Origin: a virus
Taxonomy: Duplodnaviria > Caudoviricetes
Strand: one strand, 5' to 3'
IMG/VR virus record: IMGVR_UViG_3300021256_000066
Span: 1-64,000 of that record
DNA length: 64,000 bases
In this document: positions 2,142-41,427 of the stretch, one piece after another
Layout: the number at the start of each line of letters is the position of its first letter
How positions within the stretch are numbered: the first letter of the stretch is position 1
Made by a program: the position numbers and the translations under genes
The notes under the pieces: model-generated
What the model saw: only the letters and a program-made list of their open reading frames with translations
Database searches by the model: none
What the model was told of the DNA's origin: nothing

Positions 2142-3218
2142 ATGGCAGTAACAGAACAATTCCGCGAACAGTGGCTCGAATGCCAGGAAGAGTACGGTAA
2201 GAACATCGAGGCTGGCGATATGCCGGTGATCGGCTACGGCGAGGTGGACGAGACCATCTCGCTGCCAGCCGTGAAATTCACCGCGCCCTTCAACCCCGAC
2301 GGCACCAACGTGTTCGACAGCTATGCCCACGTGCCGATGAAGACCTTTAAGAAGCGCATCGACGACCTGGCCGGCGAGGTGAGCGAGGCCACCAGCGACC
2401 TGCAGAAGGTGAAGCAGGACGCCATTGCCGCCACCGACGATGCCATCGAGGCCACAGAGAATGCCGAGGCAGCCACGACGGCGGCAACGAACGTGAATGC
2501 CGACCTGACGGGCATGACCGTGACCATCACCAACCGTCAGGGCGTCTCGAAGTCGGTGAACATCGGCTTCGAGATCCTGCAGGAGCACGTCTATCCAAGC
2601 GTCGCGGCCATGAATGCCGATGCAGCCAACGTGCGGGCAGGACAGTTCTGTATGATTGCCACCACCGACCCCACCTCGCCCGACAACGCGCAGCTCTGGA
2701 GCCGTAACTCGTCGCCCGCATCGTCGGACAAGCCGTTCACCTTCCTCTCTGACCTCGACCAGGCATCCTCAGCCGCCTTTGCCGACTGGCTCAACAACTA
2801 CAAGCCCGTGATCGAGGCCGACCACACCCGTGCCGAGAATGACCACTCGACAGCCAGCAGCGACCATACGAAGGCTTCCACCGACCACCAGACGGCCACC
2901 ACCGACCACCAGACCGCCACCACCGACCACCGCATATCGGCACAGCAGCAGGCAACATTCGAGACCAACGAGGCCGCACGACAGCAGACGTTCGACACCG
3001 ACGAGGCCAACCGCCAGACGACCTTCGACACCAACGAGAAAGCTCGGCAGGACACCTTCGTGAACAACGAGCAGGAGCGCATATCGGCCATGACAGTCAC
3101 CCGCTGCTTCGTCGATCTAAAGACCATGCACCTGATGTTCGTCCAGCCCGAGAGCGACTCCACGCAGTACAAGGTGCGCCGAGGCAGACTGAAAATTATC
3201 ACCACTTACAACACATAA
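2142..3218 (+). CDS. Tail-associated coiled-coil protein with xDHxxAx heptad and 11-residue repeats
   Basis: 358-aa ORF with AT-rich leader; repeats TDHQTAT and ARQQTFDTDEA. Confidence 0.7.
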   Translation: MAVTEQFREQWLECQEEYGKNIEAGDMPVIGYGEVDETISLPAVKFTAPFNPDGTNVFDSYAHVPMKTFKKRIDDLAGEVSEATSDLQKVKQDAIAATDDAIEATENAEAATTAATNVNADLTGMTVTITNRQGVSKSVNIGFEILQEHVYPSVAAMNADAANVRAGQFCMIATTDPTSPDNAQLWSRNSSPASSDKPFTFLSDLDQASSAAFADWLNNYKPVIEADHTRAENDHSTASSDHTKASTDHQTATTDHQTATTDHRISAQQQATFETNEAARQQTFDTDEANRQTTFDTNEKARQDTFVNNEQERISAMTVTRCFVDLKTMHLMFVQPESDSTQYKVRRGRLKIITTYNT

Positions 3219-3230
3219 AAGCAACAGACT

Positions 3231-4046
3231 ATGGCAGTACAGACAAAGATTACAGACGTAGGACCTACAGGACTCATCCCGATGGGCGACTACAATCCAT
3301 CAGCCACCTACTCGCTGCTGATGACCGTCCTCTATAACCACGACTCATGGGTGTGCATCGCCATGACCCCAGAGGGCGACGCGAAGCAGATCACGGGTAT
3401 TGCCCCCGACGACCCCACACGAGGGGCGGAGAACTGGCAGGCACTCACCGACGGAGGCCGCGCAGCAGTGGCAGTGGCAGGGCAGGTGCGATCGGAGTTC
3501 AACGACTGGTTCGGAGCTACCGCCTCAGAGGGCATCCGCAGGACAGTCAGCGACTGGTTCGCCACCGTACAGAACGCATGGAGCACCTGGTTCTCGCAGA
3601 CCAAGACCGAGTGGACAAGCTGGCTGAACAATACGAAGACGGCATGGACAGACTGGTTCAACAGCGTGAAGAGCGCCTGGACATCGTGGTTCGGCGCCGA
3701 CGCCACCAGCGGCGTGCAGAAGCAGTGGGCTACGCTGAAGGCCGACTCGACCGCCGCCACCAGCCGCGCCAACACCGCAGCCGCCACCGCAGAGGCATGG
3801 AACCAGCACCCGCCCTACATCGGCGACGGCACGACGGGCGACCTGAACTACTGGTATCTCTACGATGTCACCACGCGGCAGTACATCAAAGGCCCCTACG
3901 CCAAGGGTAACGACCTGGACTACGACGACATGACCCCCGAGGAGAAGCAGCGGCTGATAGACAACATCAAGGCCGACCTCGTTTTCGCCTCAGACGCCGA
4001 CTGCGAGGCCGCCGCCGAGGAGATTATCTTCACCCCACAGGCATAG
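3231..4046 (+). CDS. Tail-associated protein with Trp-rich 11-residue repeats
   Basis: 271-aa ORF; WSTWFSQTKTE/WTSWLNNTKTA/WTDWFNSVKSA repeats; PYIG..WY..D short fibre motif. Confidence 0.7.
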   Translation: MAVQTKITDVGPTGLIPMGDYNPSATYSLLMTVLYNHDSWVCIAMTPEGDAKQITGIAPDDPTRGAENWQALTDGGRAAVAVAGQVRSEFNDWFGATASEGIRRTVSDWFATVQNAWSTWFSQTKTEWTSWLNNTKTAWTDWFNSVKSAWTSWFGADATSGVQKQWATLKADSTAATSRANTAAATAEAWNQHPPYIGDGTTGDLNYWYLYDVTTRQYIKGPYAKGNDLDYDDMTPEEKQRLIDNIKADLVFASDADCEAAAEEIIFTPQA

Positions 4047-4048
4047 TC

Positions 4049-4083
4049 TGTCCCAAAACGAAAACAAGGTTTTTATATCTTTG
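4049..4083 (+). promoter_or_regulatory. Putative phage late promoter (TGTCCC-N21-TATCTTTG)
   Basis: Motif recurs about 13 times in the window. Confidence 0.65.
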
Positions 4084-4107
4084 AACCAACAAAACAGACA
4101 AACGAAT

Positions 4108-4410
4108 ATGGCAACAAAGCAAGACTATCCAAGCTACCTGCCCGACGACTTCAAGGGGCTCGACTCTATTCAGGAGGGCAATCAGCGCTACTACTACAAG
4201 ACCGAGGACGGTCAGCACAAGCTCATCGGCTCTATCGTAGGCAAGCGCCACCTCGTCATCCGCTTCCCAGAGGGCTCGACCATCGACGTGGTGCCGCCCA
4301 ACTCTGTCGGCACCGAACAGCTGATCGACGGGGGCGTGAAGCATGCAGACCTCGACCCCGAAATCGAAGCGGGCGACGGCGACATCGACAGCATCTTCAA
4401 CCAACAGTAA
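4108..4410 (+). CDS. Small tail-associated protein
   Basis: ATG at 4108 after an A-rich leader; NSVGTEQLIDGGVKHADL fibre-type motif; C-terminal DIDSIF shared with 4720..5610. Confidence 0.65.
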   Translation: MATKQDYPSYLPDDFKGLDSIQEGNQRYYYKTEDGQHKLIGSIVGKRHLVIRFPEGSTIDVVPPNSVGTEQLIDGGVKHADLDPEIEAGDGDIDSIFNQQ

Positions 4411-4422
4411 GGCGATATATAT

Positions 4423-4665
4423 ATGAAACAGAAGGAAATCGAACTCTACCGACGCGACGACGGCTTCTATGCCGCCCGACAACTGAAGGATGGGTCATTG
4501 AGTGCCGATGCCCACAAGGTGACAGCCGAGGAAATCATGACGATGTTCACCGAGTTCTTCGGCGACTACTGCCGCGAGACGGGCGACCAGAAGCTGCTGA
4601 TGCAGGACGCCGAGGGCAGGCTGTTCGTCACCATGCGCGTAGAGCCCAAACCAACACAGAAATGA
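4423..4665 (+). CDS. Hypothetical protein
   Basis: 80-aa ORF in operon context. Confidence 0.6.
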   Translation: MKQKEIELYRRDDGFYAARQLKDGSLSADAHKVTAEEIMTMFTEFFGDYCRETGDQKLLMQDAEGRLFVTMRVEPKPTQK

Positions 4666-4719
4666 GACTGAATCTCAGCATAGTTCACTGATTTATTAAC
4701 ACAAAAATTTGTTTGCATC

Positions 4720-5610
4720 ATGGCAATTACAAATCCAACAAAGTACGTTAGCGTACAAAGACTGAGCCGCTTCGAGGTTAAGCTCGCTCAGAAGTATCAG
4801 ACCCAGGCCATCGCAGCCATCACAGGTCTTAGTGCAGAAACCGTAGAGGCAGCGCTCGCCGAGTTGCTCGGTAAGATTCAGGCCCTGCCAAGCGCCGTCG
4901 TCCCCAAGGGAACGAAGGCGTTCGCAGGACTGACACCAGCCACCGACCTCGCAGCCGCCAACGTCGGCTTCATGTGGAACATCAGCGACGCTTTCACCAC
5001 CACGGCTGACTTCGCCGAGGGCGCAGGCCATAGCATCCCCGCAGGAGCCAACGTCTATGTAGCCAACGTCGGCACCGCCGAGACACCTGACTACAAGTAC
5101 GACATCTTCCAGGGTATGTACGACCTCTCCGGCTATGCCCTGAAGAGCGAGATGAGCATCACCGACGGTACGGGTGCAGATGCCGACAAGACCACCATCC
5201 AGCTGAAGAGCGGTCTGTCGAAGCAGGTGCTCATCGCCCACCAGGACATCAGCGGCAAGGCCGACAAGGTGGACGGCGCTGTGGCTGGCAACTTCGCAGG
5301 TCTCGACGCCAACGGCAACCTCGTTGACTCTGGCAAGAAGGCCGCCGACTTCCAGGAGGCCGGTGACTACAAGACCACGCAGGCTCCTGTCAGCGATCCG
5401 ACAGCCGACGGCACTGGCATCGAGTTCATCGACAGCATTTCCCAGAATGCCAACGGTGAGATTACTCCTCACAAGAAGTCCGTGCAGACGGTCAGCGCAT
5501 CTACCGCTGGCGTGGGCGGTCAGGCCGGTCTGATGGCTGCTGCCGACAAGGAGAAGCTCGACCTGCTGCTGGAGTGCTCCGACGATGACATCGACAGCAT
5601 CTTCGCTTAA
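4720..5610 (+). CDS. Fibre/decoration-like virion protein
   Basis: 296 aa; HQDISGKADK, GNFAGLDANGNLVDSG and AGLMAAADKEKLD motifs typical of phage fibre proteins. Confidence 0.7.
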   Translation: MAITNPTKYVSVQRLSRFEVKLAQKYQTQAIAAITGLSAETVEAALAELLGKIQALPSAVVPKGTKAFAGLTPATDLAAANVGFMWNISDAFTTTADFAEGAGHSIPAGANVYVANVGTAETPDYKYDIFQGMYDLSGYALKSEMSITDGTGADADKTTIQLKSGLSKQVLIAHQDISGKADKVDGAVAGNFAGLDANGNLVDSGKKAADFQEAGDYKTTQAPVSDPTADGTGIEFIDSISQNANGEITPHKKSVQTVSASTAGVGGQAGLMAAADKEKLDLLLECSDDDIDSIFA

Positions 5611-5680
5611 TCTCTCTATCGGGTGCAGGGGGTTCGACTCCCCCTGCGCTTGCTAATCACCAACAAAACAAAGAAAGATT

Positions 5681-5836
5681 ATGGCAGTAACGAATCCAAA
5701 CAAGTATGTGACCGTGCGACGGCTCAATCGGTTCCGTCAGAAAATCAAGGCCGAGATGCCTTCGTCCACCGTCGCCAGCGAAGAACTCTGCGCAGCGGCA
5801 GCAGCCGAGATAGCATTCGTGCCGGAGCAAGAATAG
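5681..5836 (+). CDS. 51-aa protein missing from the ORF track (MAVTNPNKYVTVRRLNRFRQK...)
   Basis: AAAGATT-ATG leader. N-terminus is paralogous to 4720..5610 and C-terminus resembles that of 3231..4046. Confidence 0.7.
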   Translation: MAVTNPNKYVTVRRLNRFRQKIKAEMPSSTVASEELCAAAAAEIAFVPEQE

Positions 5837-5858
5837 TCAAATTTTAAAACATAAGAAT

Positions 5859-6188
5859 ATGCCACAGAACAGTATTACACCAGAACAGAAGGGACAGGCC
5901 GTCAACCTCGGCGGCATGATGGCCCACGTAGAGACGGTGATGCAGCGCTTCAACAGAGAGGTGACGCAGCCCGGACTACAAGGAAAGGTGGATGATGTCA
6001 CCTTCGACTCGTCCACTGGCGAGCTCCGCCGCACTAAGAACGGCACCAGTGCCAAGGTGTGCGACGTCGTGACCAGCGGATTCCGCATCACGCAGGACGA
6101 CGAGAACGGTATCGACGTCTTCACGGCGGTAGGCAGCGCCACCATCACCGATGACGATACGAACGGTATAGTCAATTTCAATTTCTAA
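5859..6188 (+). CDS. Hypothetical tail-associated protein
   Basis: 109-aa ORF in operon directly before the DGR target. Confidence 0.65.
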   Translation: MPQNSITPEQKGQAVNLGGMMAHVETVMQRFNREVTQPGLQGKVDDVTFDSSTGELRRTKNGTSAKVCDVVTSGFRITQDDENGIDVFTAVGSATITDDDTNGIVNFNF

Positions 6189-6203
6189 TAAACAGCAAAG
6201 ACT

Positions 6204-7271
6204 ATGGCAACAATCACAACAGACAAGAGAACCGAGCGCGTAGGAATCTCCATCAACGGCTCAACCAAAACATTAGCCGACGAGAAGGCGCGTGCAGAAA
6301 TCAACAAGATCTTCACCGACCTGGCCTATGCAGGGCAGGGCATCGGCACGTGCACGACGGCCGCCACCACGGCGGCCAAGACCGTGGCCATCTCCAACTT
6401 CCTGCTGCTTAAGAACAGCATCATCGCCGTGCGCTTCACGGCAGGCATACAGGTGGCGGCAGCCACGCTCAACGTGAACTCGCAGGGCGCCAAGCCCATC
6501 TACATCAGCGGCGAGCCCGTGCAGCCTGGCGACATCCGCGCAGGGCAGACGGCAATGATGGCCTACGACGGGTCTCACTGGAACATCACCTCCATCGTGG
6601 GCAATGAGTCGGGCGGCAGCGACCAGGACCTGTATGTTGATATGGGACTGCCCAGCGGACTGCTATGGGCGAAGAAGAACATAGACGCCACGCAGGCCGA
6701 CGGCTTCGCAGCATCGGAGTACCAGTATGAGAGCTCGTTCTTCTCATTTGGCAACGTGGAGCCGCACAACCCCACCAGCAACAGCTCGTTCGCGCCGTAC
6801 TCGTTCGGCTCGTCGAACGACGATGAGCCTTACAAGTCTTCTGCAGGCGCCAAGATAGGCTACCCAGGCAGTGCAGGTCCCAGCCACGACGCGGCACGCA
6901 CCGTGCTCGGTGGCCCCTGGCGTGATCCTGCAACGGAGGACTTCGCAGAGCTGTTCAACAGCAGCTATACAAAGTTCATTGATGCCGACGGCAACGACAT
7001 CGCATCCGACGTTACCAACAAGCTAATCACGATGAACTCCATCGTCGGTATTCGCCTGAAGTCGAAGGTGAACGGTAATATTATTTTCTTTCCTTGCTCA
7101 GGCAACGGCAATGGCTCGTCGTGGTACTATCGCGGCTCGAACGGCAACTACTGGTCTCGCTCGCTCTACTCCGCCGTATACGGTCGGTACTTGTTCTTCT
7201 ACTCTGGTGGTGTCTACCCGCAGAACAACTACAATCGGTTCCTCGGGTTCCCGGTTCGGCCGGTCCAGTAA
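6204..7271 (+). CDS. DGR target protein, putative receptor-binding adhesin with C-terminal C-type-lectin-like variable domain
   Basis: VDMGLPSGLLWAKKNI, G.YWS.S and terminal GFPVRPV motifs; VR occupies the 3' end. Confidence 0.9.
   Translation: MATITTDKRTERVGISINGSTKTLADEKARAEINKIFTDLAYAGQGIGTCTTAATTAAKTVAISNFLLLKNSIIAVRFTAGIQVAAATLNVNSQGAKPIYISGEPVQPGDIRAGQTAMMAYDGSHWNITSIVGNESGGSDQDLYVDMGLPSGLLWAKKNIDATQADGFAASEYQYESSFFSFGNVEPHNPTSNSSFAPYSFGSSNDDEPYKSSAGAKIGYPGSAGPSHDAARTVLGGPWRDPATEDFAELFNSSYTKFIDADGNDIASDVTNKLITMNSIVGIRLKSKVNGNIIFFPCSGNGNGSSWYYRGSNGNYWSRSLYSAVYGRYLFFYSGGVYPQNNYNRFLGFPVRPVQ
7084..7268 (+). repeat. DGR variable repeat (VR) ending in a GC-rich IMH-like segment
   Basis: Aligns ungapped to 8231..8415 (offset 1147) with 12 mismatches at TR adenines and 1 C>A. 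Confidence 0.95.
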
Positions 7272-17993: not shown

Positions 17994-19250
17994 ATGGCAG
18001 AATTAAAGTTCATCGGTATCGACAATGTGGTAAACATTGCCAACCAGTTGGAGCCCAACATCATCATGGGTCCCGCGTACTACAAGAAGAGTGACCTGGA
18101 GCGCTTTGGCATCAAGGTGCTGACAGGCGTACAGTTCAAGAAGACCGCTATGGTGCTCAGCCGCAAGGGTGGTACCAGCCGTCGCAAGAAGGTGGGCGTT
18201 CATCAGGAGTCCAAGCTCGGATATTTGATGGAGCGTGAGCTTGTCGCTCATCAGGTCTGGAATCGCTTCAAGCATAATGAGGACGAGTTTCAGGAGAAAC
18301 CCATCGCCATCGAGGGTAGCGCGAAGTTCCATTATCCCCTCGCCGAGGAGTTCATCACCGAAATTGGTAAGGAGTTCTCTGACGACGTTTATGCTTGCAT
18401 GTTCCACGGTGACGACGAGAGCGATGACGTGCAGCTGAACCTCTACAGCGGCTACCACACGCTTATCAACCGCGACATGGCCAAGGGTCTTATCTCAGAG
18501 GCCAACGGCAACCTGATCCCCTGCGCAGTGCTCGACGCTCCGCAGAGCGAGGGCGACAGCCAGGCTTGGGACGAGTTCGTGAAGTGGCACGACAAGTGGC
18601 CTTCAGTGCTGCAGGATGCAGACAAGGTGCTCGTGTATTGCTCCGTAGAGTACGGTAACAACATCAGCGATGCCTACGAGCAGAAGCACCGCTCGCTGAA
18701 GTCGGCAAAGTACCTCGACAACGGCAACTTCGTGATTGACCGCTACAAGAACATCGAGTTCGTTCCCTCTGCACGCTGGGGTAATGGCACCCGCATGGTG
18801 GCCACTCTGCCTCAGAACTTCGAGTTCGGCGTGAACAGCGAGGGCCAGGAGTCGTTCGTAGCAGTCCAGCATGGCAGCGACGACGATGTAAAAGATATCA
18901 TTTTCCAGATCCAGGGTATCTACGGATGCCGTATCAAGGACGTCCTGAAGCGTGCGTTTGTCACCAACGGCGGAACCATCGAGGGAACCTTCGAGCGCGG
19001 CGACTACGAGAAGGATGCCGTCATCGCCATCCCTAACGACAAGGAGCTCGGCACAGTGACCATCAAGAACGGTGAGACACCCGTAGAGAGCGGCACTGAG
19101 GTGGCCAAGGGCGTGACCCTGACGCTGACCGCTACGCCGAAGACCGGCAAGAAGTTCGTGAAGTGGAGCAACGGCTCGACCGCCAACCCGACCAGCATCG
19201 TGACCACGGGCGATCCTATCGCCATCGTCGGTATCTTCTCGGGGGAATAA
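17994..19250 (+). CDS. Major capsid protein with C-terminal small beta (InlB-B/Ig-like) domain
   Basis: Follows the protease/scaffold gene; strongly biased codons; LTATP..G..FVKWS.G tail domain. Confidence 0.75.
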   Translation: MAELKFIGIDNVVNIANQLEPNIIMGPAYYKKSDLERFGIKVLTGVQFKKTAMVLSRKGGTSRRKKVGVHQESKLGYLMERELVAHQVWNRFKHNEDEFQEKPIAIEGSAKFHYPLAEEFITEIGKEFSDDVYACMFHGDDESDDVQLNLYSGYHTLINRDMAKGLISEANGNLIPCAVLDAPQSEGDSQAWDEFVKWHDKWPSVLQDADKVLVYCSVEYGNNISDAYEQKHRSLKSAKYLDNGNFVIDRYKNIEFVPSARWGNGTRMVATLPQNFEFGVNSEGQESFVAVQHGSDDDVKDIIFQIQGIYGCRIKDVLKRAFVTNGGTIEGTFERGDYEKDAVIAIPNDKELGTVTIKNGETPVESGTEVAKGVTLTLTATPKTGKKFVKWSNGSTANPTSIVTTGDPIAIVGIFSGE

Positions 19251-19594
19251 CCGCCGGAGGCGACCCGGCTAACCAAACGCCTGCACCGGAGCCCGAGCCA
19301 CAGCAGCCCGAGCCGCAGGTTCCCGAGAAAGTAAGTTACAACTTCACTTCGTACAGCGCTGACGGCGAGACCGAGTACGGCAACGGAACGGTCGAGACGA
19401 CAGGCGAGAAGAAGACCTTCAACGGTGTCGAGTACACCGAGGCCGAGGTGAAGACGAACACTGAGCCCGAGTGGGTAGGACGCAAGTTCTACATCATCTC
19501 AACCGCGACCGCAGACGGAACGGCCAAGTACCCGCTCTACGACGCCGAGGGCCAGGAGGCCGGAGTTCTGGTAACTATCACGCCGACAGCGTAA
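19241..19594 (+). CDS. -1 frameshift extension of the capsid protein
   Basis: G GGG GAA TAA at the capsid stop, a downstream GCCGG/CCGGC hairpin, and a -1 frame encoding a PEPEP linker plus beta-rich domain with no in-frame ATG. Confidence 0.7.
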   Translation, partial: GGITAGGDPANQTPAPEPEPQQPEPQVPEKVSYNFTSYSADGETEYGNGTVETTGEKKTFNGVEYTEAEVKTNTEPEWVGRKFYIISTATADGTAKYPLYDAEGQEAGVLVTITPTA

Positions 19595-19705
19595 ATCTCT
19601 CAAAGGGGGTACGGGAGCCCCGAGGCGCTTCATATCGCCCGCCGACAGGGCTCCCTCCCTTTCTTATAAAGAAACGTAAGTAACCAACGCAAAAATTTAT
19701 AGAAT

Positions 19706-20245
19706 ATGGCAGTACAATGTCCAACTATGATGAATATTCTCAAAGCCGACGAGTGCTTGGAGAATCTGGCTGGCATCAGCGCCGACGTCTATGTCGGTAT
19801 CAAGTCTGACCTGGCCGAACCCCTGACCGCCGAGGAGAACGTCTATTCGACGCCTTCCTTCGCCAGCGGCAAGGGCCTGTATAAGATTCAGGGAAAAAAC
19901 GAGGCGCAGAAGATCCACTTCTCAAGCCTTGGTCCCCGCAAGGGCTACGACCTTGACATCACCGTCGTCATCGAGTCGCTCAACAAGACGTTCTCGAAGG
20001 CTGGCCGTGCGCTGAACAACCTCGACCTGTTCTTCATCGTGAAAGATGGTGACGATTCGCTGATTATGTACGACCCCAACCGTCGCTGCGAGGCTGACTC
20101 AGGCGGCATCGAGGGCGACACGGGCGACACAGCCGACAGCGACCGCCAGGCTAATTGTGTCTTCCACCTGAAGCCTGTAAAGTATCCTCTGCTATACGTC
20201 ACTGAGCCCGCTTCTGGCGGCTGGGACGGCCTGATGGTACAGTAA
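19706..20245 (+). CDS. Putative major tail (tube) protein
   Basis: 179 aa after the capsid gene; C.ENLAGI...Y N-terminus of the type seen in Bacteroidota phage tube proteins. Confidence 0.6.
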   Translation: MAVQCPTMMNILKADECLENLAGISADVYVGIKSDLAEPLTAEENVYSTPSFASGKGLYKIQGKNEAQKIHFSSLGPRKGYDLDITVVIESLNKTFSKAGRALNNLDLFFIVKDGDDSLIMYDPNRRCEADSGGIEGDTGDTADSDRQANCVFHLKPVKYPLLYVTEPASGGWDGLMVQ

Positions 20246-20309
20246 CTCTCTCACCAACGAATCATCGGAATGGTTTCATAAGTAAATACTTGATTGAAGG
20301 TTAGTTGCA

Positions 20310-20344
20310 CCCGCGTCACGAGTTGGCGCGGGGTTTCTTTTTTG
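20310..20344 (+). terminator. Rho-independent terminator
   Basis: CCCGCGTCA..TGGCGCGGG followed by TTTCTTTTT. Confidence 0.6.
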
Positions 20345-20369
20345 TGTCGTTCGCCCGTCGAGGGCGCAA

Positions 20370-21011
20370 TCAAGCCTCGGTGTCGGGCTGAGCGTCGGCG
20401 GTGTCAGTCGTTTCGTCGATGGGCTGTGCGTCGGCGTCAGCGTCGATGGGCTGCGCATCCGAAGCCTTCTTCCTTGCCTTGCGCTTCTGTACCCGCAGTA
20501 GGGCTCGGATGTTCTCGACCAGTGAGCCAACGTCGCCGTCGGCAGCCAGCATGCGGCTGTTGGGGCCGACCGATGCCGAGTAGGCCGTCATCACCGCCTC
20601 GGTGCGCGGCTGGAGCAGCATCTCGCCCTGAGCGACCATCGACTCGCTTTCGCCGACAACGATGAATGCCTCCAGCGAGAGTCCCTCGCGCCAGCCGTAG
20701 TCGCAGAGCGCCATCTGCTCTTCGCCCAGTTCCTCGGCCACCAGCTCGCGCTGGTCGGTGGCTGTCAGCAGGTGGAGCTGGCGGATCCACCCCCGCTGCA
20801 TCCAGTGGCGCAGGAATCGCATCAGCACCACATCGACCGCCTTCACCGCAATCCAATACTCGCCGAAGCCGCTGTTTGCCATACAGCACGCGGCCTGCAT
20901 CAGCTTCTCAATCGTCACGTCGCCGTTCGTCTGGAACAGTGCGTGGCCCTTAGAATTTCTCAACAGCTGCGGGAGTTGACTTGCCACGCAGCAAGGCTCT
21001 ATAAATGCCAT
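20370..21011 (-). CDS. Hypothetical protein
   Basis: 213 aa with its own minus-strand GTCCC-N21-TAACTTTG promoter (21043..21077). Confidence 0.75.
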   Translation of the reverse strand: MAFIEPCCVASQLPQLLRNSKGHALFQTNGDVTIEKLMQAACCMANSGFGEYWIAVKAVDVVLMRFLRHWMQRGWIRQLHLLTATDQRELVAEELGEEQMALCDYGWREGLSLEAFIVVGESESMVAQGEMLLQPRTEAVMTAYSASVGPNSRMLAADGDVGSLVENIRALLRVQKRKARKKASDAQPIDADADAQPIDETTDTADAQPDTEA

Positions 21012-21042
21012 AGTCTTAATTATTAAATGATTACTACGCCGA

Positions 21043-21119
21043 CAAAGTTACGTCCGAATACCGCAAGTTTTGGGACTGAAAAGTTGTCCCAATATATAAT
21101 TATAAAGGTAATATCTTTG
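21043..21119. promoter_or_regulatory. Divergent pair of GTCCC-N21-TAnnTTTG promoters
   Basis: Minus 21043..21077, plus 21085..21119. Confidence 0.65.
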
Positions 21120-21148
21120 CAACCAGACGAACTTATGAAACAAAGGAT

Positions 21149-21388
21149 ATGACACAGACAATCATTCTAACCATCATTGTTTGCATCACGGTCATCACCG
21201 TGTTTGCCATCTGCGTCTTTGCACCGAGCAAGGACAAACAGTCGCAGCGTCTGGAGGACATCCGCAAGATGATTGACGTATTCGAGGGAGAACACATCGT
21301 CTTCGACCACAAGGAAGGCAAGTATATCATCAACGCATCGTCGGAGCAAATCCGCACGCTGCTCAAACAAATCGTGAGGATATCATGA
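21149..21388 (+). CDS. Small protein with N-terminal TM helix
   Basis: 79 aa. Confidence 0.65.
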   Translation: MTQTIILTIIVCITVITVFAICVFAPSKDKQSQRLEDIRKMIDVFEGEHIVFDHKEGKYIINASSEQIRTLLKQIVRIS

Positions 21389-21693
21389 GCAACAAGAAAG
21401 AAACCATGCGCGAGATACCGGCGGAGCTGTATGAGCGGCTCGACAGGCTGGGGATGCTGCCAAACGACGTGCGCGACCACAACCAGGGCGCAAGCGACTA
21501 CTCGCAGCGCCTGATACAGCCGTGGACCATCTGGCTGGAATACCAGCTCAACCCGTGGGACGCCGACATCGTGAAGCGCGTGCTGCGCCACAAGGCCACC
21601 GACCCGCGACGGCTCGATTACGAGAAGATCATCCACATCTGCCAGGAGCGCATCCGGCAGATAGACCACGGCGCGGACCTGATTCAGCCGTGA
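21385..21693 (+). CDS. DUF3310-like helical protein
   Basis: G.SDY...IQPW.....LNPWDADIVKRVLR.K...DYEK pattern resembles DUF3310/SaV-like proteins. Confidence 0.55.
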   Translation: MSNKKETMREIPAELYERLDRLGMLPNDVRDHNQGASDYSQRLIQPWTIWLEYQLNPWDADIVKRVLRHKATDPRRLDYEKIIHICQERIRQIDHGADLIQP

Positions 21694-21738: not shown

Positions 21739-22754
21739 ATGGATTTACGAATAGGCTTAGTTGACGTTGACGGACACGCAAAGAAGAAAAAGTGGGGCGC
21801 GACGGTTTACCCGAACCTCGCACTGACCAAGATTGCCAGATACCACAAGGAGCATGGTGACGATGTGGAGTGGGCATGGCCGCTGAAGCACTACGACAAG
21901 GTGTATATATCGAAGGTGTTCAACTTCTCGCCAGATGACCTCATGGCCTACGATGCCGACGAGATCGTCAGGGGCGGCACGGGTTACGACATCAGTAGCC
22001 GACTGCCTGACGAGATAGACCGACTGCAGCCCGACTACTCGATTTATCCCGCACTTCCGAAAGATACGGCCTACGGATTCCTGACACGCGGCTGTCCGAA
22101 CAAGTGCCCTTGGTGCGTCGTTCCACGCAAGGAAGGCAAGATACGTCCTTATATGGATATCGACGAGATAGCCATTGAGGGCAGAAAGAACATAGTGCTG
22201 ATGGATAACAACATCCTCGCTGCGGGCGACTATGCCGTAGAGCAGCTGGAGAAGATTGTCGAGCGTGGCTATCGTGTCGATTTCAACCAAGCCCTTGATG
22301 CCCGGCTTGTCAACGACGAGTATGCACGCCTGTTGGCAAAGATAAAATTCATCGGCCATCGTGTCCGCTTCGGCTGCGACACCCCTGCGCAGATCAAGGA
22401 GGTGGAACGTGCCGTCGAACTGATGACGGGCTACGGCTTCAAAGGCGAGATATTCCTTTATACGATGATAGGCGGCAAGTCGGACTTCATGGAGTCGTAC
22501 AGCCGCGTCCACTACTGGTGGGTTCGCAATCACGAGATACGCAGTCGGCACGTCGGCTATGGCATCTATCCGTATGCACAGCCCTATCGTGATCCCGACA
22601 ACCCTAAGTTTACCCCCCCCCCCAATGGCAAAAGGATATGGCGCAATGGGTCAACAAGCACCAGCTGTTTGAAGCCATCGACTTCCCCGACTTCTCGCCT
22701 CGCAAGGGCTTCAAGTGTGGAGCATATCTGGAGCAGTACGGCATAAAGTTCTGA
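21739..22754 (+). CDS. Radical SAM protein, frameshifted at a C11 run (22613..22623)
   Basis: TRGCPNKCPWC (CxxxCxxC), DNNIL and DFNQALDAR motifs. The -1 frame continues QWQKDMAQWVNK...PRKGFKC to TGA 22754. Confidence 0.85.
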
Positions 22755-22804
22755 TTCTTCACTTCCCAACCTCCATGTCCAACCCCCCAAAAAACAAGAG
22801 CGAT

Positions 22805-23580
22805 ATGATAGAACTTGACAAGATATATAATGAGGACTGCCTCGAAGGCATGAAGCGCATCGATGACGGTGCAATGGACTGCATCATTACCGATTTGCCG
22901 TATGGCGTGCTCAACAAGCAGAGTGAGGGCGGTTCGTGGGACAGCATTATCCCGCTGGAGCCGATGTGGGAGCAGTTCAAGCGAGTGACCAAGCCCAATG
23001 CGCCCATCGCACTATTCTGCCAAGGCATGTTCACGGCAAAGCTGATGATGTCGCAGCCGAAGATGTGGCGATATAATCTGATATGGGATAAAGGCCGAAC
23101 GAGCGCGTTCCTTAATGCAAACAGGATGCCGTTACGCCGCCACGAGGACATTGCCGTGTTCTATCAAGAGCTTCCAACGTACAATCCGCAAATGGAGAAA
23201 GTTGCACCACATCGCCGTAATCACACGAGGGGCGATATGAAAGGGCAGTTGAAGAATCGTTGCTATGGTGGCTTTGTTGCAACACCGACAATCATCAGTG
23301 ACGAGAAATATCCGACCAGTATCATCTACATTCAGCGAGAGCACGATGTAAAGCAGTTCTACCACCCCACCCAGAAGCCCGTCGATCTGCTGCGCTACCT
23401 GATACTGACCTACACCAATGTGGGGGGGTAGTTCTCGATGCAACGATTGGCTCGGGCACAACGGCTGTGGCGGCGCTGATGGAGAAACGCCACTTTATCG
23501 GCTTCGAGACCAACAAAGAGTATTTCGACATCGCACAAGGTCGTATCGACAATATCAGGCGACAGCCGACGCTATTCTAA
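22805..23580 (+). CDS. Beta-class N6A/N4C DNA methyltransferase, frameshifted at G7 (23422..23428)
   Basis: TDLPYG (motif IV) and HPTQKP in frame 0. The SAM-binding motif VVLDATIGSGTT...FIGFE lies in the -1 frame, ending 23580. Confidence 0.88.
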
Positions 23581-23608
23581 AATCATCAACACTCCAAACG
23601 AAGGCGAT

Positions 23609-24351
23609 ATGATTGAACTCGACAAGATATACAATGAGGACTGCTTGCAGGGCATGAAGCGCATCGGCACGGCATCGGTGGACTGCATCATCTGTGACCC
23701 GCCTTACCTGTTGGAGAATCAGGGCGGCGGCTTTTGGTCGAAGAACGAAGACCCGACGGTGAACCACTACAATGCCCGTGGCACTCGCAAGGGTATGGAC
23801 CGACTTGGCAGTATCAAGGACGGCTTTGATGATGAAGTGCTCGACGAGATGTGCCGCGTGATGAAGCGAGTGAACATCTACCTCTTCTGCTCGCAAAAGC
23901 AGATACAGAGATATCTCGATTACTTTGTCAGCGGCAAGGGCTGCAACTGGAACCTGCTGACGTGGCACAAGGCGAACCCGATACCCGCCTGCGGCAACAA
24001 GTATCTGAACGACACGGAGTACATCATGTTCTTCCGTGAAAAGGGCGTGAAGATTTACGGCTCGTATGAGACCAAGCGGACGTTCTACACCACGCTGCGC
24101 AATCAGGAGGACAACCTGCGCTACAAGCATCCGACGGTGAAGCCACTCCAGATAGTGCGCAACCTCGTGGTGAACAGCACCGAACTGGGGGGGGGGTAGT
24201 TCTTGATCCCTTCATCGGCAGCGGCACAACGGCTGTCGCCTGCGCCAAGGAACATCGCCACTATATCGGTTTCGAGATCGACAATGGGCACTATCAGACG
24301 GCCATCGGTCGCATCCGTGACGAAATGGCTCAGCCCTCGCTCTTTGGCTGA
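23609..24351 (+). CDS. Beta-class N6A/N4C DNA methyltransferase, frameshifted at G10 (24187..24196)
   Basis: CDPPY and HPTVKP in frame 0. [12 protein letters not shown]...YIGFE lies in the -1 frame, ending 24351. Confidence 0.9.
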
Positions 24352-24398
24352 AAAGGAAATTCTGAAACGACAATATATATATTAAAAAGGAAAGGAAT

Positions 24399-25862
24399 AT
24401 GGAACAGAGACGACTTTACCCCGACATGACGGCTGAGGAGCAGCTGCAGTGGGTGACAGACTTCGAGGCGCTGATGCAGGACGGCGGCGGGCGCATCATC
24501 GACATGGCCCGCAGGCGACAGCCGCAGTGGCAGCCGCAGGACGCGCTGACCGTGAGACGGCTGGTGGGGATGCTCGCCGCCTGGCCGTTCGCACAGGACT
24601 TCGCCGAGAAGGCACAGCGCTACGGCGACTACATGGCGAGGGCGACGCGACTGCCCGTGTATGTCGATAAGGTGATGGAGCGGTTGGCCGACGGGCTGAC
24701 GATGACGGACAAGGACGGGCGGACGGTGGTCTACGTGTCGCCATCGGCACCGCTGCGCCGACGCGGCAGGCCCAGCCGTGAGGAACTGGCAGCACGCCAG
24801 CGGGGCGAACAGCCGCAGGGAGCGGAGCCCGACGATGCCGAGGCACGCAAGCGCCGCACGGTGGCAAGGATGCTGGGACTCGACGTGATAGTGAGCGGCT
24901 CTGCGCCCCGCGAGAAGAACAATGCCGAGCTGAAGGCCGAGCGCGACCGCCGCCGTGCCGAGTACGAAAGGCAGAACCCAAGCCTGTTTGGAGAGACCCC
25001 CTCTCAATCTCCCCGAGGGGAGAAGACGGAGACGGAGACAGTTAGTGAAGCCGCTAACGCACAGACACCTCCCCTCGGGGAGGACGGGAGGGGGTTGTCT
25101 TCCTGTGCCCAGCTGATGTCGGATTCCTACGAGATGCGGATGGCACAGGACAGGCTCCACCTCGACCAGCTCGCGTGGCTGCTGTCGAAGCCGTTGCAGG
25201 AGCGCGTCCGACAGGTGCAGAGCCAGCGCACGGCCTCGGAGGCAGCCAGCGAACGGGCGAAGCTGCTGGCCGAGATTGGCGGCAAGCAGGAGGAGATAGC
25301 CGAGTATGCCGAGCAGGCGAAGGTCTCCACAGAGGCTTACCTGGCGACGTATGCCGCCGTCGATGAGGAACTGGCTACCGTGTTCTATCGCTTGCAAAAC
25401 GACGAACCTTTCCGCGAGAACTTCGTGCGCCGCTTCAAGGGTGTCGATCTCATAAAGGTGGCACACATCTGCCGACCCTATTACGAGAAGGTGAAGTCGC
25501 CCGAGCTCGACCTGCGCATCAAGACCATCATCGAGCAGGAGAACCCCGAGTATGCCGCCCGCATGAAGGCCGAGGAGGCGAAGAAGGAGGAGGTGGCCGA
25601 CATACTGCGCTACCTGAAGCGCAAGGACAAGGACGCTTCGGACACACGGTTGAAGACCGCCAAGGAGGTGAAATTCCCCCGACTGGTGGAACTTATCGGC
25701 GAGAAGGAAGCCGCTGACTACCTGCCGCTCATCGCCTATATCGAGGAGGAAAACCGCAAGTGGCGGGAGGCGAAGGGCGCAAAGGGGACTGACCCTGGTG
25801 ATTCGCCCGCTCCGAAAGAGCGGAAGAAACCCGCCAAGGCACCGAAACCAAAGACCAAATGA
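24399..25862 (+). CDS. Hypothetical helical protein with AT-hook-like RRRGRP
   Basis: 487-aa ORF with good codon usage. Confidence 0.8.
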   Translation: MEQRRLYPDMTAEEQLQWVTDFEALMQDGGGRIIDMARRRQPQWQPQDALTVRRLVGMLAAWPFAQDFAEKAQRYGDYMARATRLPVYVDKVMERLADGLTMTDKDGRTVVYVSPSAPLRRRGRPSREELAARQRGEQPQGAEPDDAEARKRRTVARMLGLDVIVSGSAPREKNNAELKAERDRRRAEYERQNPSLFGETPSQSPRGEKTETETVSEAANAQTPPLGEDGRGLSSCAQLMSDSYEMRMAQDRLHLDQLAWLLSKPLQERVRQVQSQRTASEAASERAKLLAEIGGKQEEIAEYAEQAKVSTEAYLATYAAVDEELATVFYRLQNDEPFRENFVRRFKGVDLIKVAHICRPYYEKVKSPELDLRIKTIIEQENPEYAARMKAEEAKKEEVADILRYLKRKDKDASDTRLKTAKEVKFPRLVELIGEKEAADYLPLIAYIEEENRKWREAKGAKGTDPGDSPAPKERKKPAKAPKPKTK

Positions 25863-39249: not shown

Positions 39250-40425
39250 ATGTTAATTACAACAATCGAGGAATTAAGACTGTGCTTCCCCAGCCACGCC
39301 ATCGACCACATCGACGCATTTGTCGGCTATATCGACAACTCCGAGCACGAGTTTCTGCTCCAGCCCCTCGGACAGCCGCTGTATGACAAACTCTGCGACT
39401 GGTACGACCAGAACAAACCCGTGATGACCACCATCGACGACAAGCAGGCAGGCTATTACAACAAACTCCTGCTCATCGCCCAGCGCTGCGTCGCCTTCGA
39501 CGCCATGTCGAGAGCCATCGACCAGCAGGCCATCTCGATCAACGGCTCCGGCATCAACTTTGCCAGTGCCGACGACTACAAGCCTGCCGACCGCGACGCC
39601 ATCAACGCCGCCAAGCTCTCCTATCAGAAGGAAGCCCACTCAGCCCTCAACCGCCTGCTCTACACGCTGGAGCTGTGGACTTGCCAAGGGTCTGACGACA
39701 CCGAGCGCACGGAGATCACCGCCCTCTGGCGCCAGTCGCGCTACTTCTACCTCGTCGCCCAGCTGCTCATCCCCTCAGCCGTCGTGCTGCAGGAATACCT
39801 GAATATCTACGACAGCCGCGAGAAGTATATCCAGATGCTTCCCGACCTCCACTTCATCCAGGAAGAACAGATTGCCCCCGCCATCGGTGAGGACTTCTGC
39901 GACAGGCTCGTGGCGCTGCAACTCCGTGGCGGCACCCGTCGCGACCTCACCGCAGCCACCGCCGCACAGCCGAAGACCGCCGAGGACGACACGCTGCCAG
40001 CCACCGTCCGCCGACTGCTCCACAAGCTGCGCAAGATAGAGGCCACCCTGCTCGAAGGCCGCACGAAGGTGCTCCGCGTCGAGAAAGACCGCCGCATCGC
40101 CGCCCGCGACGAGGGTATGCGACTGCTCAGCGACTGGCTCGCGTGGTGCCAGCAGCATCAGCAGGCCATCCTGCACGACCTCGACACGCTTGCCGGACTG
40201 CCCGCCACCGCCGCCGCCCTGCTCTCGCCCGACGATCAGAAGAAGCTCGACCCCGCACAGCTCGCCGCCCTGCTCGAAGCCGAGCGCCCCTTCACCGACA
40301 GCCCCATGTTCCTCGCCCCCGTCTGGGAGCAGCCGCAGTCATCGGGCACAGCCCCAGATGCCTGTCCCCACGACACCCACGACTGCGAAATCGACGGCAT
40401 GCTGGTGACAGCTCCGCTTCTCTGA
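39250..40425 (+). CDS. Putative head-tail adaptor (DUF6712-like)
   Basis: Directly follows the portal; MLITTIEELR..P and L.P.LG..LY motifs. Confidence 0.6.
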   Translation: MLITTIEELRLCFPSHAIDHIDAFVGYIDNSEHEFLLQPLGQPLYDKLCDWYDQNKPVMTTIDDKQAGYYNKLLLIAQRCVAFDAMSRAIDQQAISINGSGINFASADDYKPADRDAINAAKLSYQKEAHSALNRLLYTLELWTCQGSDDTERTEITALWRQSRYFYLVAQLLIPSAVVLQEYLNIYDSREKYIQMLPDLHFIQEEQIAPAIGEDFCDRLVALQLRGGTRRDLTAATAAQPKTAEDDTLPATVRRLLHKLRKIEATLLEGRTKVLRVEKDRRIAARDEGMRLLSDWLAWCQQHQQAILHDLDTLAGLPATAAALLSPDDQKKLDPAQLAALLEAERPFTDSPMFLAPVWEQPQSSGTAPDACPHDTHDCEIDGMLVTAPLL

Positions 40426-40446
40426 CCCCCCCAAAAAAAAGGCGAT

Positions 40447-41427
40447 ATGAAACCGACAACATTAGATTTGAAAGTGCCTCGCGGATGGCAGCAGTGCTCC
40501 ACCCGTGAGCTTGAGATGATAGCCGAGGAGATGATCCGCTCGCAGATGATAGCATCGCTCTCCCGATTCCATCCCTTCGACTGGACCGAAATCAAGACCC
40601 GCCTCTTCTTCCGCTTCTCGGGAGTGGAGGTGACGGACATGGTGGAAGACGAATACGAAAACGACGTCTTTATCTGCCGACACCCGTCGCTCGGCAAGGA
40701 GACGTTCGAGTTGCAGACCTGGCAGGTGTATTCGTTCCTCGAACAGCTGAAGTGGCTCGACGCCACCGACGCGAAAGGCCGACCCCTGCCGATGCCGAAG
40801 ATGATGTGGCCCTACCCCGAACGGCTGTGGCGACTCCGATGGAAACGCTGGAAGCCCGAGAAAGATTACTACCGACCTGGCGAACTGCTCGACGGTCTCT
40901 CGTGGGCGCAGTACCGACTGGCGAACGACTGGATGGAGGTATATACCAATGCGGCGAACGGGCTCATCGCTGAACAAGAGAAGCACGCCAAGGCCAATCC
41001 AGAGCGCATCCGCAGCCTCGCAGAGCAGCAGGAGAACGCCCGACTGGAGGTGCTGGCGCAACTGTTCTACGTGAGCGACCCCGCAGAGCCGTCGAAGGTG
41101 AAGTCAGCCCCGCGCCGACTGCTGCGCAAGATTACCGAGGTCGAATGGCAGGTCATCATGTTCTGGTGGTCGTCGATGATGCAGTACCTGAAAGAACAAT
41201 ATCCGAAGTGCTTCAAGTCGTCGGCCAAGAATCCGAGGTCGCGCTCGAAGCAACAGCCGCTGCCGATTGAGTTATATACCCGCTCGATGGCCACGCTGCA
41301 GAAGTACCTCGGCGGCCTCACGGAAGATGAAATCAACGCCCAGACCGCCCACGCCATCCTGCGCCACCTGAACGACATGGCCGTAGAAGCCGAGGAAATG
41401 GAGAAACTCCGCCGCAAGCACAAATAA
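40447..41427 (+). CDS. Hypothetical virion-module protein
   Basis: 326 aa in the portal operon. Confidence 0.75.
   Translation: MKPTTLDLKVPRGWQQCSTRELEMIAEEMIRSQMIASLSRFHPFDWTEIKTRLFFRFSGVEVTDMVEDEYENDVFICRHPSLGKETFELQTWQVYSFLEQLKWLDATDAKGRPLPMPKMMWPYPERLWRLRWKRWKPEKDYYRPGELLDGLSWAQYRLANDWMEVYTNAANGLIAEQEKHAKANPERIRSLAEQQENARLEVLAQLFYVSDPAEPSKVKSAPRRLLRKITEVEWQVIMFWWSSMMQYLKEQYPKCFKSSAKNPRSRSKQQPLPIELYTRSMATLQKYLGGLTEDEINAQTAHAILRHLNDMAVEAEEMEKLRRKHK

Follow-up and report, generated by a model that had tools for sequence, protein, structure and literature searches.

The 64-kb window analyzed here (positions 1 to 64,000 of the 129,506-bp IMG/VR record IMGVR_UViG_3300021256_000066, which CheckV rates as complete) comes from the genome of a rumen phage of about 129 kb. 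At 21739–24351, on the plus strand, it holds a cassette of three co-oriented genes: a radical S-adenosylmethionine (radical-SAM) gene followed by two beta-class DNA methyltransferases, MTase-1 and MTase-2. Each is thrown out of frame by a homopolymeric run of C or G, and the cassette is probably a set of simple-sequence-repeat contingency loci, that is, accessory phage genes that switch between an intact (ON) and a truncated (OFF) state. A slippage-prone repeat (C11, G7, and G10, respectively) lies inside each of the three open reading frames (ORFs). Run length varies among near-identical genomes, both between assemblies of the same phage and between relatives with identical flanks. Finally, length toggles a full-length against a truncated product and leaves the remainder of the gene intact, as reflected in the split PF01555 domain of the methylases and in relatives recovered in all three frame states. 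Homologs were drawn from IMG/VR, JGI metagenomes, ENA assemblies, Logan contigs, and a protein database. A preliminary description of this stretch had proposed phage-borne ON/OFF switching by simple repeats; the comparative evidence, from run-length differences within the same phage to relatives in each frame, is in full agreement with that proposal.

The switch is most clearly documented in the methylases. MTase-1 (22805–23580, plus strand) would encode 258 amino acids if in frame, and MTase-2 (23609–24351, plus strand) 246–247. Both are beta-class N6-adenine/N4-cytosine DNA methyltransferases: PF01555 matches the two halves of each above its gathering score (54.6 and 43.4 bits for MTase-1, 41.6 and 48.6 bits for MTase-2; cut-off 26.7), and motif IV, near the N-terminus, precedes motif I. 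Motif IV reads DLPY in MTase-1 (not DPPY) and DPPY in MTase-2, and GSGTT follows the run in each. In MTase-1, the N-terminal part runs from the ATG at 22805 to 23428, through a G7 run (23422–23428) that encodes V-G-G, and is closed immediately by TAG (23429–23431); the part containing motif I occupies 23428–23577, with a stop at 23578–23580. In MTase-2, the N-terminal part runs from the ATG at 23609 to 24196, through a G10 run (24187–24196) that encodes L-G-G-G, and is likewise closed at once by TAG (24197–24199); the motif I part occupies 24196–24348, with a stop at 24349–24351. MTase-1 is in frame at G8 and MTase-2 at G8 or G11, and both are OFF here. The runs split PF01555 at profile positions 182/184 of 221. 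The TAGTTCT downstream of both runs supplies the V-V-L codons just ahead of D-x-x-x-G-S-G-T-T (motif I), and a TAG directly after the run therefore yields a product without the motif I that binds S-adenosylmethionine (AdoMet). The lengths, positions, and frames of the runs, and the equivalent G(n)TAGTTCT site at which both methylases are cut, are as the preliminary description gave them.

Intact relatives with the same sequence context are available for each enzyme. The MTase-1 relative P0161 is 258 amino acids long, 96% identical, and shares the TNVGG-VVLD context; the MTase-2 relatives P0125, P0126, P0130, and P0133 are 98% identical and read TELGG-VVLD. Compared with each other, intact relatives of MTase-1 and MTase-2 are 33% identical, as paralogs with conserved ends and a divergent middle part, which presumably serves target recognition. 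The nearest solved structures are those of the beta-class methyltransferases DpnA, CcrM, and M.MboIIA. It was also observed that the two methylases share identical first 13 residues, with approximately 85% nucleotide identity across their first 84 bases.

The G/C runs in the cassette exceed chance. Under a first-order Markov model, approximately 0.09 G/C runs of 10 or more bases are expected in the 129.5-kb genome; two are observed, both in the cassette. Within the window, three of the four G/C runs of at least seven bases fall inside these 2.6 kb. The whole genome contains 18 such runs, of which three are in the cassette and 12 in a 3.5-kb block around a C5-methyltransferase (70.0–73.5 kb). 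GGG is the rarest glycine codon in this phage (11%), and the cassette runs provide three of the four GGG-GGG pairs found among 101 long ORFs.

Four further assemblies of the same phage, all short-read and 99.93–100% identical to the window, were found via exact-protein look-ups; contig names point to SPAdes, MEGAHIT, and Logan as the assemblers. The ENA contig NODE_196 (129,586 bp) has no mismatches over 8.9 kb and carries G10, its sole difference being C10 for C11. The SHIW14 scaffold from ENA, of sheep-rumen origin, shows four mismatches in 8.9 kb, plus C10 and G9. Among the Logan contigs, SRR1267595 has C10, and SRR873596 has C11 and G7. The C run is accordingly C10 in three of these assemblies and C11 in one; the G7 of MTase-1 is identical in all four same-phage assemblies covering it, and every indel between assemblies is confined to the two longest runs (C10/C11 and G9/G10). 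In none of the five assemblies, the window's own included, does any of the three genes read in frame, so the DNA of this strain probably lacks the marks that these enzymes would write. The preliminary description had further emphasized that all three genes require the same −1 correction. This holds for the window's assembly, but C10 and G9 in the sister assemblies make the common need for one added base peculiar to that assembly, and hence an accident to which no significance attaches; three OFF genes would share a direction by chance one time in four. A look-up by the downstream 487-residue protein returned the NODE_196 contig only, and exact-flank pattern scans for near-identical copies found none in IMG/VR (which may omit records near the window's own) or in the JGI metagenomes.

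The same switch site recurs across the clade, as was found when homologs were surveyed for G runs ahead of motif I, a check that the preliminary description had suggested. When IMG/VR was scanned for runs of at least G7 ahead of motif I codons, 43 loci were recovered, with 37 assessable alleles. These divide almost evenly into 19 in frame (18 with G8, one with G9) and 18 out of frame (seven G7, two G8, four G9, and five G10). In each of the 18 OFF alleles, both the N-terminal domain (186–268 codons) and the motif I part (46–62 codons) are open. Some alleles fall into groups whose flanks are identical and whose members differ in run length only (G7, G8, and G9); one rumen allele occurs with G7 on at least 15 contigs and with G9 on at least 16, from different ENA assemblies. 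Among relatives of the MTase-1 site, L036, L039, L066, and L153 have an in-frame G8 and L067 an out-of-frame G9. Among those of the MTase-2 site, L019 and L006 have an in-frame G8, L005 an out-of-frame G10, and L153/L154 an in-frame G12 with a different preceding base. P0001, 98% identical to MTase-2, is free of the run, and other relatives retain the ancestral N-E-G-D, also without a run. Breakage is confined to proteins with a run: among the 129 closest classifiable MTase-2 homologs, none of the 32 run-free proteins is broken, vs. 46 of the 97 that bear one. When mapped on a tree built from the N-terminal parts, ON and OFF states require at least 28 changes, vs. 33 for shuffled labels, a sign that switching is much faster than the divergence of the sequences; the run itself appears or disappears at least 16 times. 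The preliminary description had named uniform in-frame lengths in accurate reads, and homologs without runs at these sites, as outcomes that would speak against switching. By proxy, the opposite was observed on both counts: every same-phage assembly is out of frame, and runs are present at these sites in homologs.

The sequence that follows the run may itself be informative. In 12 of 14 distinct alleles, from loci chosen irrespective of the run-following sequence, the one-short frame meets a stop triplet at once, although these alleles are not independent of one another; GTA makes up only 15.5% of valine codons. The immediate stop hints at an OFF state designed to be clean. Two further observations concern relatives of these methylases. 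In L066 (IMGVR_UViG_3300037454_000334), a related 107-kb phage, seven G7–G10 runs lie within 4.6 kb (2600–7200), in two PF01555 methylases, a gene with a PAPS-reductase domain (three runs, including a G10), and its radical-SAM homolog, with all of these ORFs open in that assembly. In a different methylase lineage (L047:4299 and L048:1250), a G8 run falls within motif I itself, as ATT-GGGGGGGG-TACA, encoding I-G-G-G-T.

The radical-SAM gene (21739–22754, plus strand; approximately 337 amino acids if in frame) matches phrog_9298, a phage-only family, with an E value of 1e-85. The gene belongs to the radical SAM superfamily: the CxxxCxxC motif is present as CPNKCPWC by direct reading of the sequence, and PF04055 scores 26 bits, under its cut-off of 29.5. 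The N-terminal part is read in frame 0 from 21739 to 22623, passing through a C11 run (22613–22623) that encodes T-P-P-P, and frame 0 stays open to 22746. The conserved C-terminus (QWQKDMAQWVN...) lies one base back, its last 43 codons occupying 22623–22751 and its stop 22752–22754. The C run sits 45 codons ahead of the gene end; the gene is in frame at C9 or C12, and thus OFF here. In approximately 50 radical-SAM homologs from IMG/VR, both parts are in a single frame and there is no run at this site; L088, which reads K-F-Q-P-P-Q-W, shows C9 to be the ancestral in-frame length. A scan of JGI metagenomes for closer relatives with the run recovered C8 twice (87% nucleotide identity) and one pair of alleles with C8 and C9, giving three C8 and one C9 at the same site. 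The 90% protein cluster of the radical-SAM gene contains C8, C9 (in frame), C10, and C11 forms, and P0144 and P0148 are in-frame relatives with the same context, at 95–96% protein identity.

Runs of G7–G10 occur elsewhere in the gene at 14 of 71 radical-SAM homolog loci, nine of which are broken there. One of these is recurrent: a G7–G9 run near codon 40, encoding H-G-D-D in the N-terminal domain, is found in the homologs L105, L111, L113, L114, L116–L119, and L130. The G8 alleles of L105 and L130 are in frame at this run, whereas the G7 and G9 alleles, as well as the G8 of L111, are broken. The run thus represents a second, independent switch site within the radical-SAM family.

The function of the radical-SAM protein is less readily addressed. 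A predicted model of a 77%-identical homolog (predicted local distance difference test score 91) consists of an N-terminal Rossmann-like domain and a radical-SAM core. A fold search with this model found its closest matches among MiaB/MtaB/RimO and the B12-dependent radical-SAM methylases (template modeling score approximately 0.55), with TsrM and MgmA also recovered. Identity as a methylthiotransferase (MiaB, RimO, or MtaB) was considered and rejected: three cysteines are required in the N-terminal domain, and residues 1–110 of this protein contain none, so the likeness is one of fold only. Searches of Pfam, NCBIfam, and PDB sequences were uninformative as to function, a protein atlas yielded only uncharacterized virus clusters, and the fold hits are of a generic two-domain type. 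The preliminary description had counted all three genes as DNA-modification genes; for the radical-SAM gene this is a guess and is unproven, given its generic fold and the presence of a beta-class methylase within 3 kb at just 10 of the 71 radical-SAM loci.

A mechanism by which these runs could act may be outlined. Polymerase slippage on a G or C run during replication of the phage DNA would change its length by one base in either direction, and thereby shift the reading frame. The methylase runs encode a Gly-Gly(-Gly) loop predicted to lie just ahead of strand 1 and of the motif I sequence VVLDxxxGSGTT, where AdoMet is bound. From an in-frame run (G8, or also G11 for MTase-2), a full enzyme of 246–258 amino acids would be made. 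With a run one base short, the immediate TAG would leave a protein of 196–208 amino acids that lacks motif I and is presumably inactive; with a run one base too long, translation would continue into a short tail in the wrong frame. The C run near the end of the radical-SAM gene would act analogously. Slipped-strand mutation of this kind would be heritable and probably reversible, the nearly random distribution of ON and OFF on the tree being the indirect evidence for its rate and reversibility, and in-frame variants, which exist among very close relatives, would be expected to emerge at low frequency in each burst. A likely selective basis is a trade-off in which methylation would shield phage DNA from classical restriction and expose it to modification-dependent nucleases. 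Bet-hedging against restriction is thus a plausible interpretation, with a precedent in the agt gene of phage T2.

Several considerations weigh against contingency switching in this cassette. The evidence is drawn from assemblies, which bear on heterogeneity within a population only indirectly. The sister assemblies may derive from related samples of one sheep-rumen study, which limits their independence. The 90% protein-cluster representatives over-count truncated forms, so that the OFF fraction among homologs is rough. As described above, the radical-SAM enzyme seldom adjoins such methylases. Lastly, with all three genes OFF in every assembly of the strain, and with C10–C11 and G9–G10 exceeding the shortest in-frame lengths (C9 and G8), what is observed looks much as drift after inactivation would look.

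This last point leads to the best surviving alternative, nonadaptive decay, in which the runs, as mutational hot spots, drift unselected in length because the accessory genes that contain them are dispensable and, in this strain, dead or dying. Beyond the uniform OFF state and the excess length, decay is favored by the existence of two relatives that lack both methylases and of a run-free MTase-2 at 98% identity (P0001). It is nevertheless unlikely. No second lesion is found in either half of the three genes, nor in any of the 18 OFF alleles from IMG/VR, and in-frame alleles with the same context exist at 95–98% identity. ON and OFF states are interleaved on the tree, so OFF lineages are not dead ends. 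G runs stand at the same site in methylases that are merely 33% identical, and do so via the rarest glycine codon. The immediate one-short stop argues in the same direction, but is suggestive only, for the reason of non-independence given above.

Contingency switching must also be weighed against a sequencing artefact, in which the true runs are in frame (C12, G8, and G11) and each has been under-called by one base. Consensus sequences are error-prone at runs of 10–11 bases, a single added base mends all three runs in the window's assembly, and the C10/C11 and G9/G10 differences might in part come from noisy reads. The preliminary description had regarded such under-calling as the main alternative, a status that it does not retain: we consider it very improbable. 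Four assemblies, produced with different assemblers, agree on G7, and the five assemblies of the phage include none that is in frame at any gene, with the sisters off in the opposite direction (C10 and G9). In the window's assembly, A/T runs of up to A9 (59309) lie within open frames, and many G7 and G8 runs are in frame. Across IMG/VR there is no bias toward under-calling, out-of-frame alleles being one base short in 11 cases vs. one base long in 10. It is also hard to obtain the relative's allele with G7 and G9, each on many contigs, from errors of one base around a single length.

Programmed recoding, whether the ribosome shifts by −1 at GGG-GGG-stop or the polymerase slips during transcription, would provide steady low expression in place of switching, and would suit the −1 shift that all three genes need in the window's assembly, the stop after each methylase run where the P-site Gly-tRNA could re-pair one base back, and the known tendency of long homopolymers to cause some slippage of polymerase and ribosome (which makes leaky expression of OFF alleles likely at some level); it is the least probable of the alternatives, because a need peculiar to one assembly argues against it, the opposite correction applies to C10 and G9 in the same phage, about half of related alleles are plainly in frame, no X-XXY-YYZ heptamer is present, and the RNA downstream of the runs shows no consistent folding (z-scores −2.4, −0.7, and +1.1). 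Expression by slippage, which the preliminary description had raised, accordingly finds little in these data to recommend it.

The ORFs neighboring the cassette (17994–21693 and 24399–25862) have no match in Pfam or PHROG, and no restriction partner or regulator is therefore identified among them; both methylases are phage-borne orphans, without a restriction partner, in a lytic-type phage genome. In L211 and L213, which have 87% nucleotide identity in the radical-SAM gene, that gene directly adjoins a homolog of the gene at 24399, vs. the interval 22755–24398 in the window. The absence of the methylases between the same flanking genes marks the two as an inserted, dispensable module. Possible leader-region repeats also occur. 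A C6A6 repeat at 22783–22794 lies 10 bases upstream of the MTase-1 ATG and is invariant among the sister assemblies, and a C7A8 repeat at 40426–40440 lies within the 21-base gap between a stop at 40425 and an ATG at 40447; (g)gcgatATG comes after both. If they are leader-region repeats, they may influence expression.

Outside the window, at 70039–73519 of the genome, 12 runs of G7 or G8 (one of them a C8) are found in mini-ORF cassettes around a circularly permuted C5-methyltransferase. They are in mixed ON and OFF states in this assembly, mostly in frame, and they show such runs to be a genome-wide feature of the modification genes. At 85291–85299, on the minus strand, there is a G9 run (C9 when read on the sense strand), 12 codons before the end of a 313-amino-acid ORF without a Pfam match; an overlapping 71-amino-acid ORF in another frame might continue it, and this run may represent another switch.

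Phase-variable methyltransferases are classic bacterial pathogen biology. Contingency loci in phages are a recent addition, with receptor-binding genes described in 2021 and T2 agt in 2025. The cassette and its many relatives indicate that, in nature, whole sets of phage DNA-modification genes bear such switches, with approximately half of sampled alleles OFF. Phage methylomes, and hence host range across restriction and anti-modification defenses, may vary within one burst. There are practical consequences as well: annotation pipelines will miscall such genes as pseudogenes or split genes, and the site before motif I is an easy target for building phages locked ON or locked OFF, with which epigenetic bet-hedging could be tested. 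A broader proposal is possible rather than probable, namely that one and the same switch has evolved repeatedly in a large clade of phages from rumen and gut: a G8-type run using the rarest glycine codon, followed by GTA-R or GTG-A, placed exactly before motif I of beta-class methyltransferases, with an immediate stop when one base short, and with similar runs in radical-SAM genes, PAPS-reductase-like genes, and C5-methylase specificity cassettes. Together, the three switches of the cassette and the roughly 12 at 70–73 kb might then generate a combinatorial library of methylomes in each burst, as a general counter-strategy to mixed restriction and modification-dependent defenses.

Comparison with known systems helps to define what is and is not new here. 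By domain family, motif order (DPPY before FxGSG), and size, the two enzymes resemble the PF01555 methyltransferases DpnA, CcrM, M.MboIIA, and M.RsrI; sequence similarity to these is low, however, MTase-1 has DLPY, and target and base specificity are not readable from sequence. In bacterial phasevarions, Type III mod, Type I hsd, and Type IIG genes carry simple repeats, as in Haemophilus, Neisseria, Helicobacter, and Campylobacter (PMC4889913). The cassette is like these in that a simple repeat in a methyltransferase ORF toggles the frame, and with it, in the bacterial systems, methylation at a single target motif, and in that natural ON and OFF forms exist. It is unlike them in residing in a phage genome and in consisting of orphan beta-class enzymes, for which the likely benefit would be protection or exposure of phage DNA; control of a regulon is not expected, and the cassette is not classed as a phasevarion.

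Among phages, the closest parallel is the agt contingency locus of T2 and T4, where a poly-A tract in the alpha-glucosyltransferase gene of T2 undergoes reversible frameshifts at rates determined from culture; in T2, OFF has been shown by experiment to escape a modification-dependent nuclease and ON to resist McrBC-type restriction (bioRxiv 10.1101/2025.10.21.683753). Both cases involve a homopolymer in a phage DNA-modification gene, and the same trade-off is proposed for the cassette. Unlike the poly-A of agt, however, the runs of the cassette consist of G or C, are 7–11 bases long, and occur several to a genome, in a radical-SAM gene as well as in methyltransferases; they are known from metagenomes only. 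The Campylobacter phages of the genus Fletchervirus have hypermutable polyG tracts of 7–11 bases in receptor-binding genes and give mixed progeny, as reported by Sorensen et al. (2021); those runs affect host recognition, whereas the runs described here affect DNA modification. A polyG run in a methylase of Bordetella phage BPP-1 (Liu et al., 2004, as described in bioRxiv 10.1101/2025.10.21.683753) was a single case noted without follow-up; the cassette, by contrast, offers one conserved site before motif I, a large clade, and population evidence of switching. For phages of the rumen or gut, literature searches returned no account of phase-variable methylases. Within the same genome, the C5-methyltransferase block shares the type of run (G7–G8, then TA or CA), the functional class, and the mixed ON and OFF states; it would switch small recognition modules of one enzyme, whereas the cassette would switch whole enzymes through loss of the cofactor motif. 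The underlying mechanism is thus already known, from bacterial methyltransferases and from recently described phage contingency loci. What the cassette adds is strong evidence of such switching from natural populations, and a recurrent, conserved switch site just before motif I.

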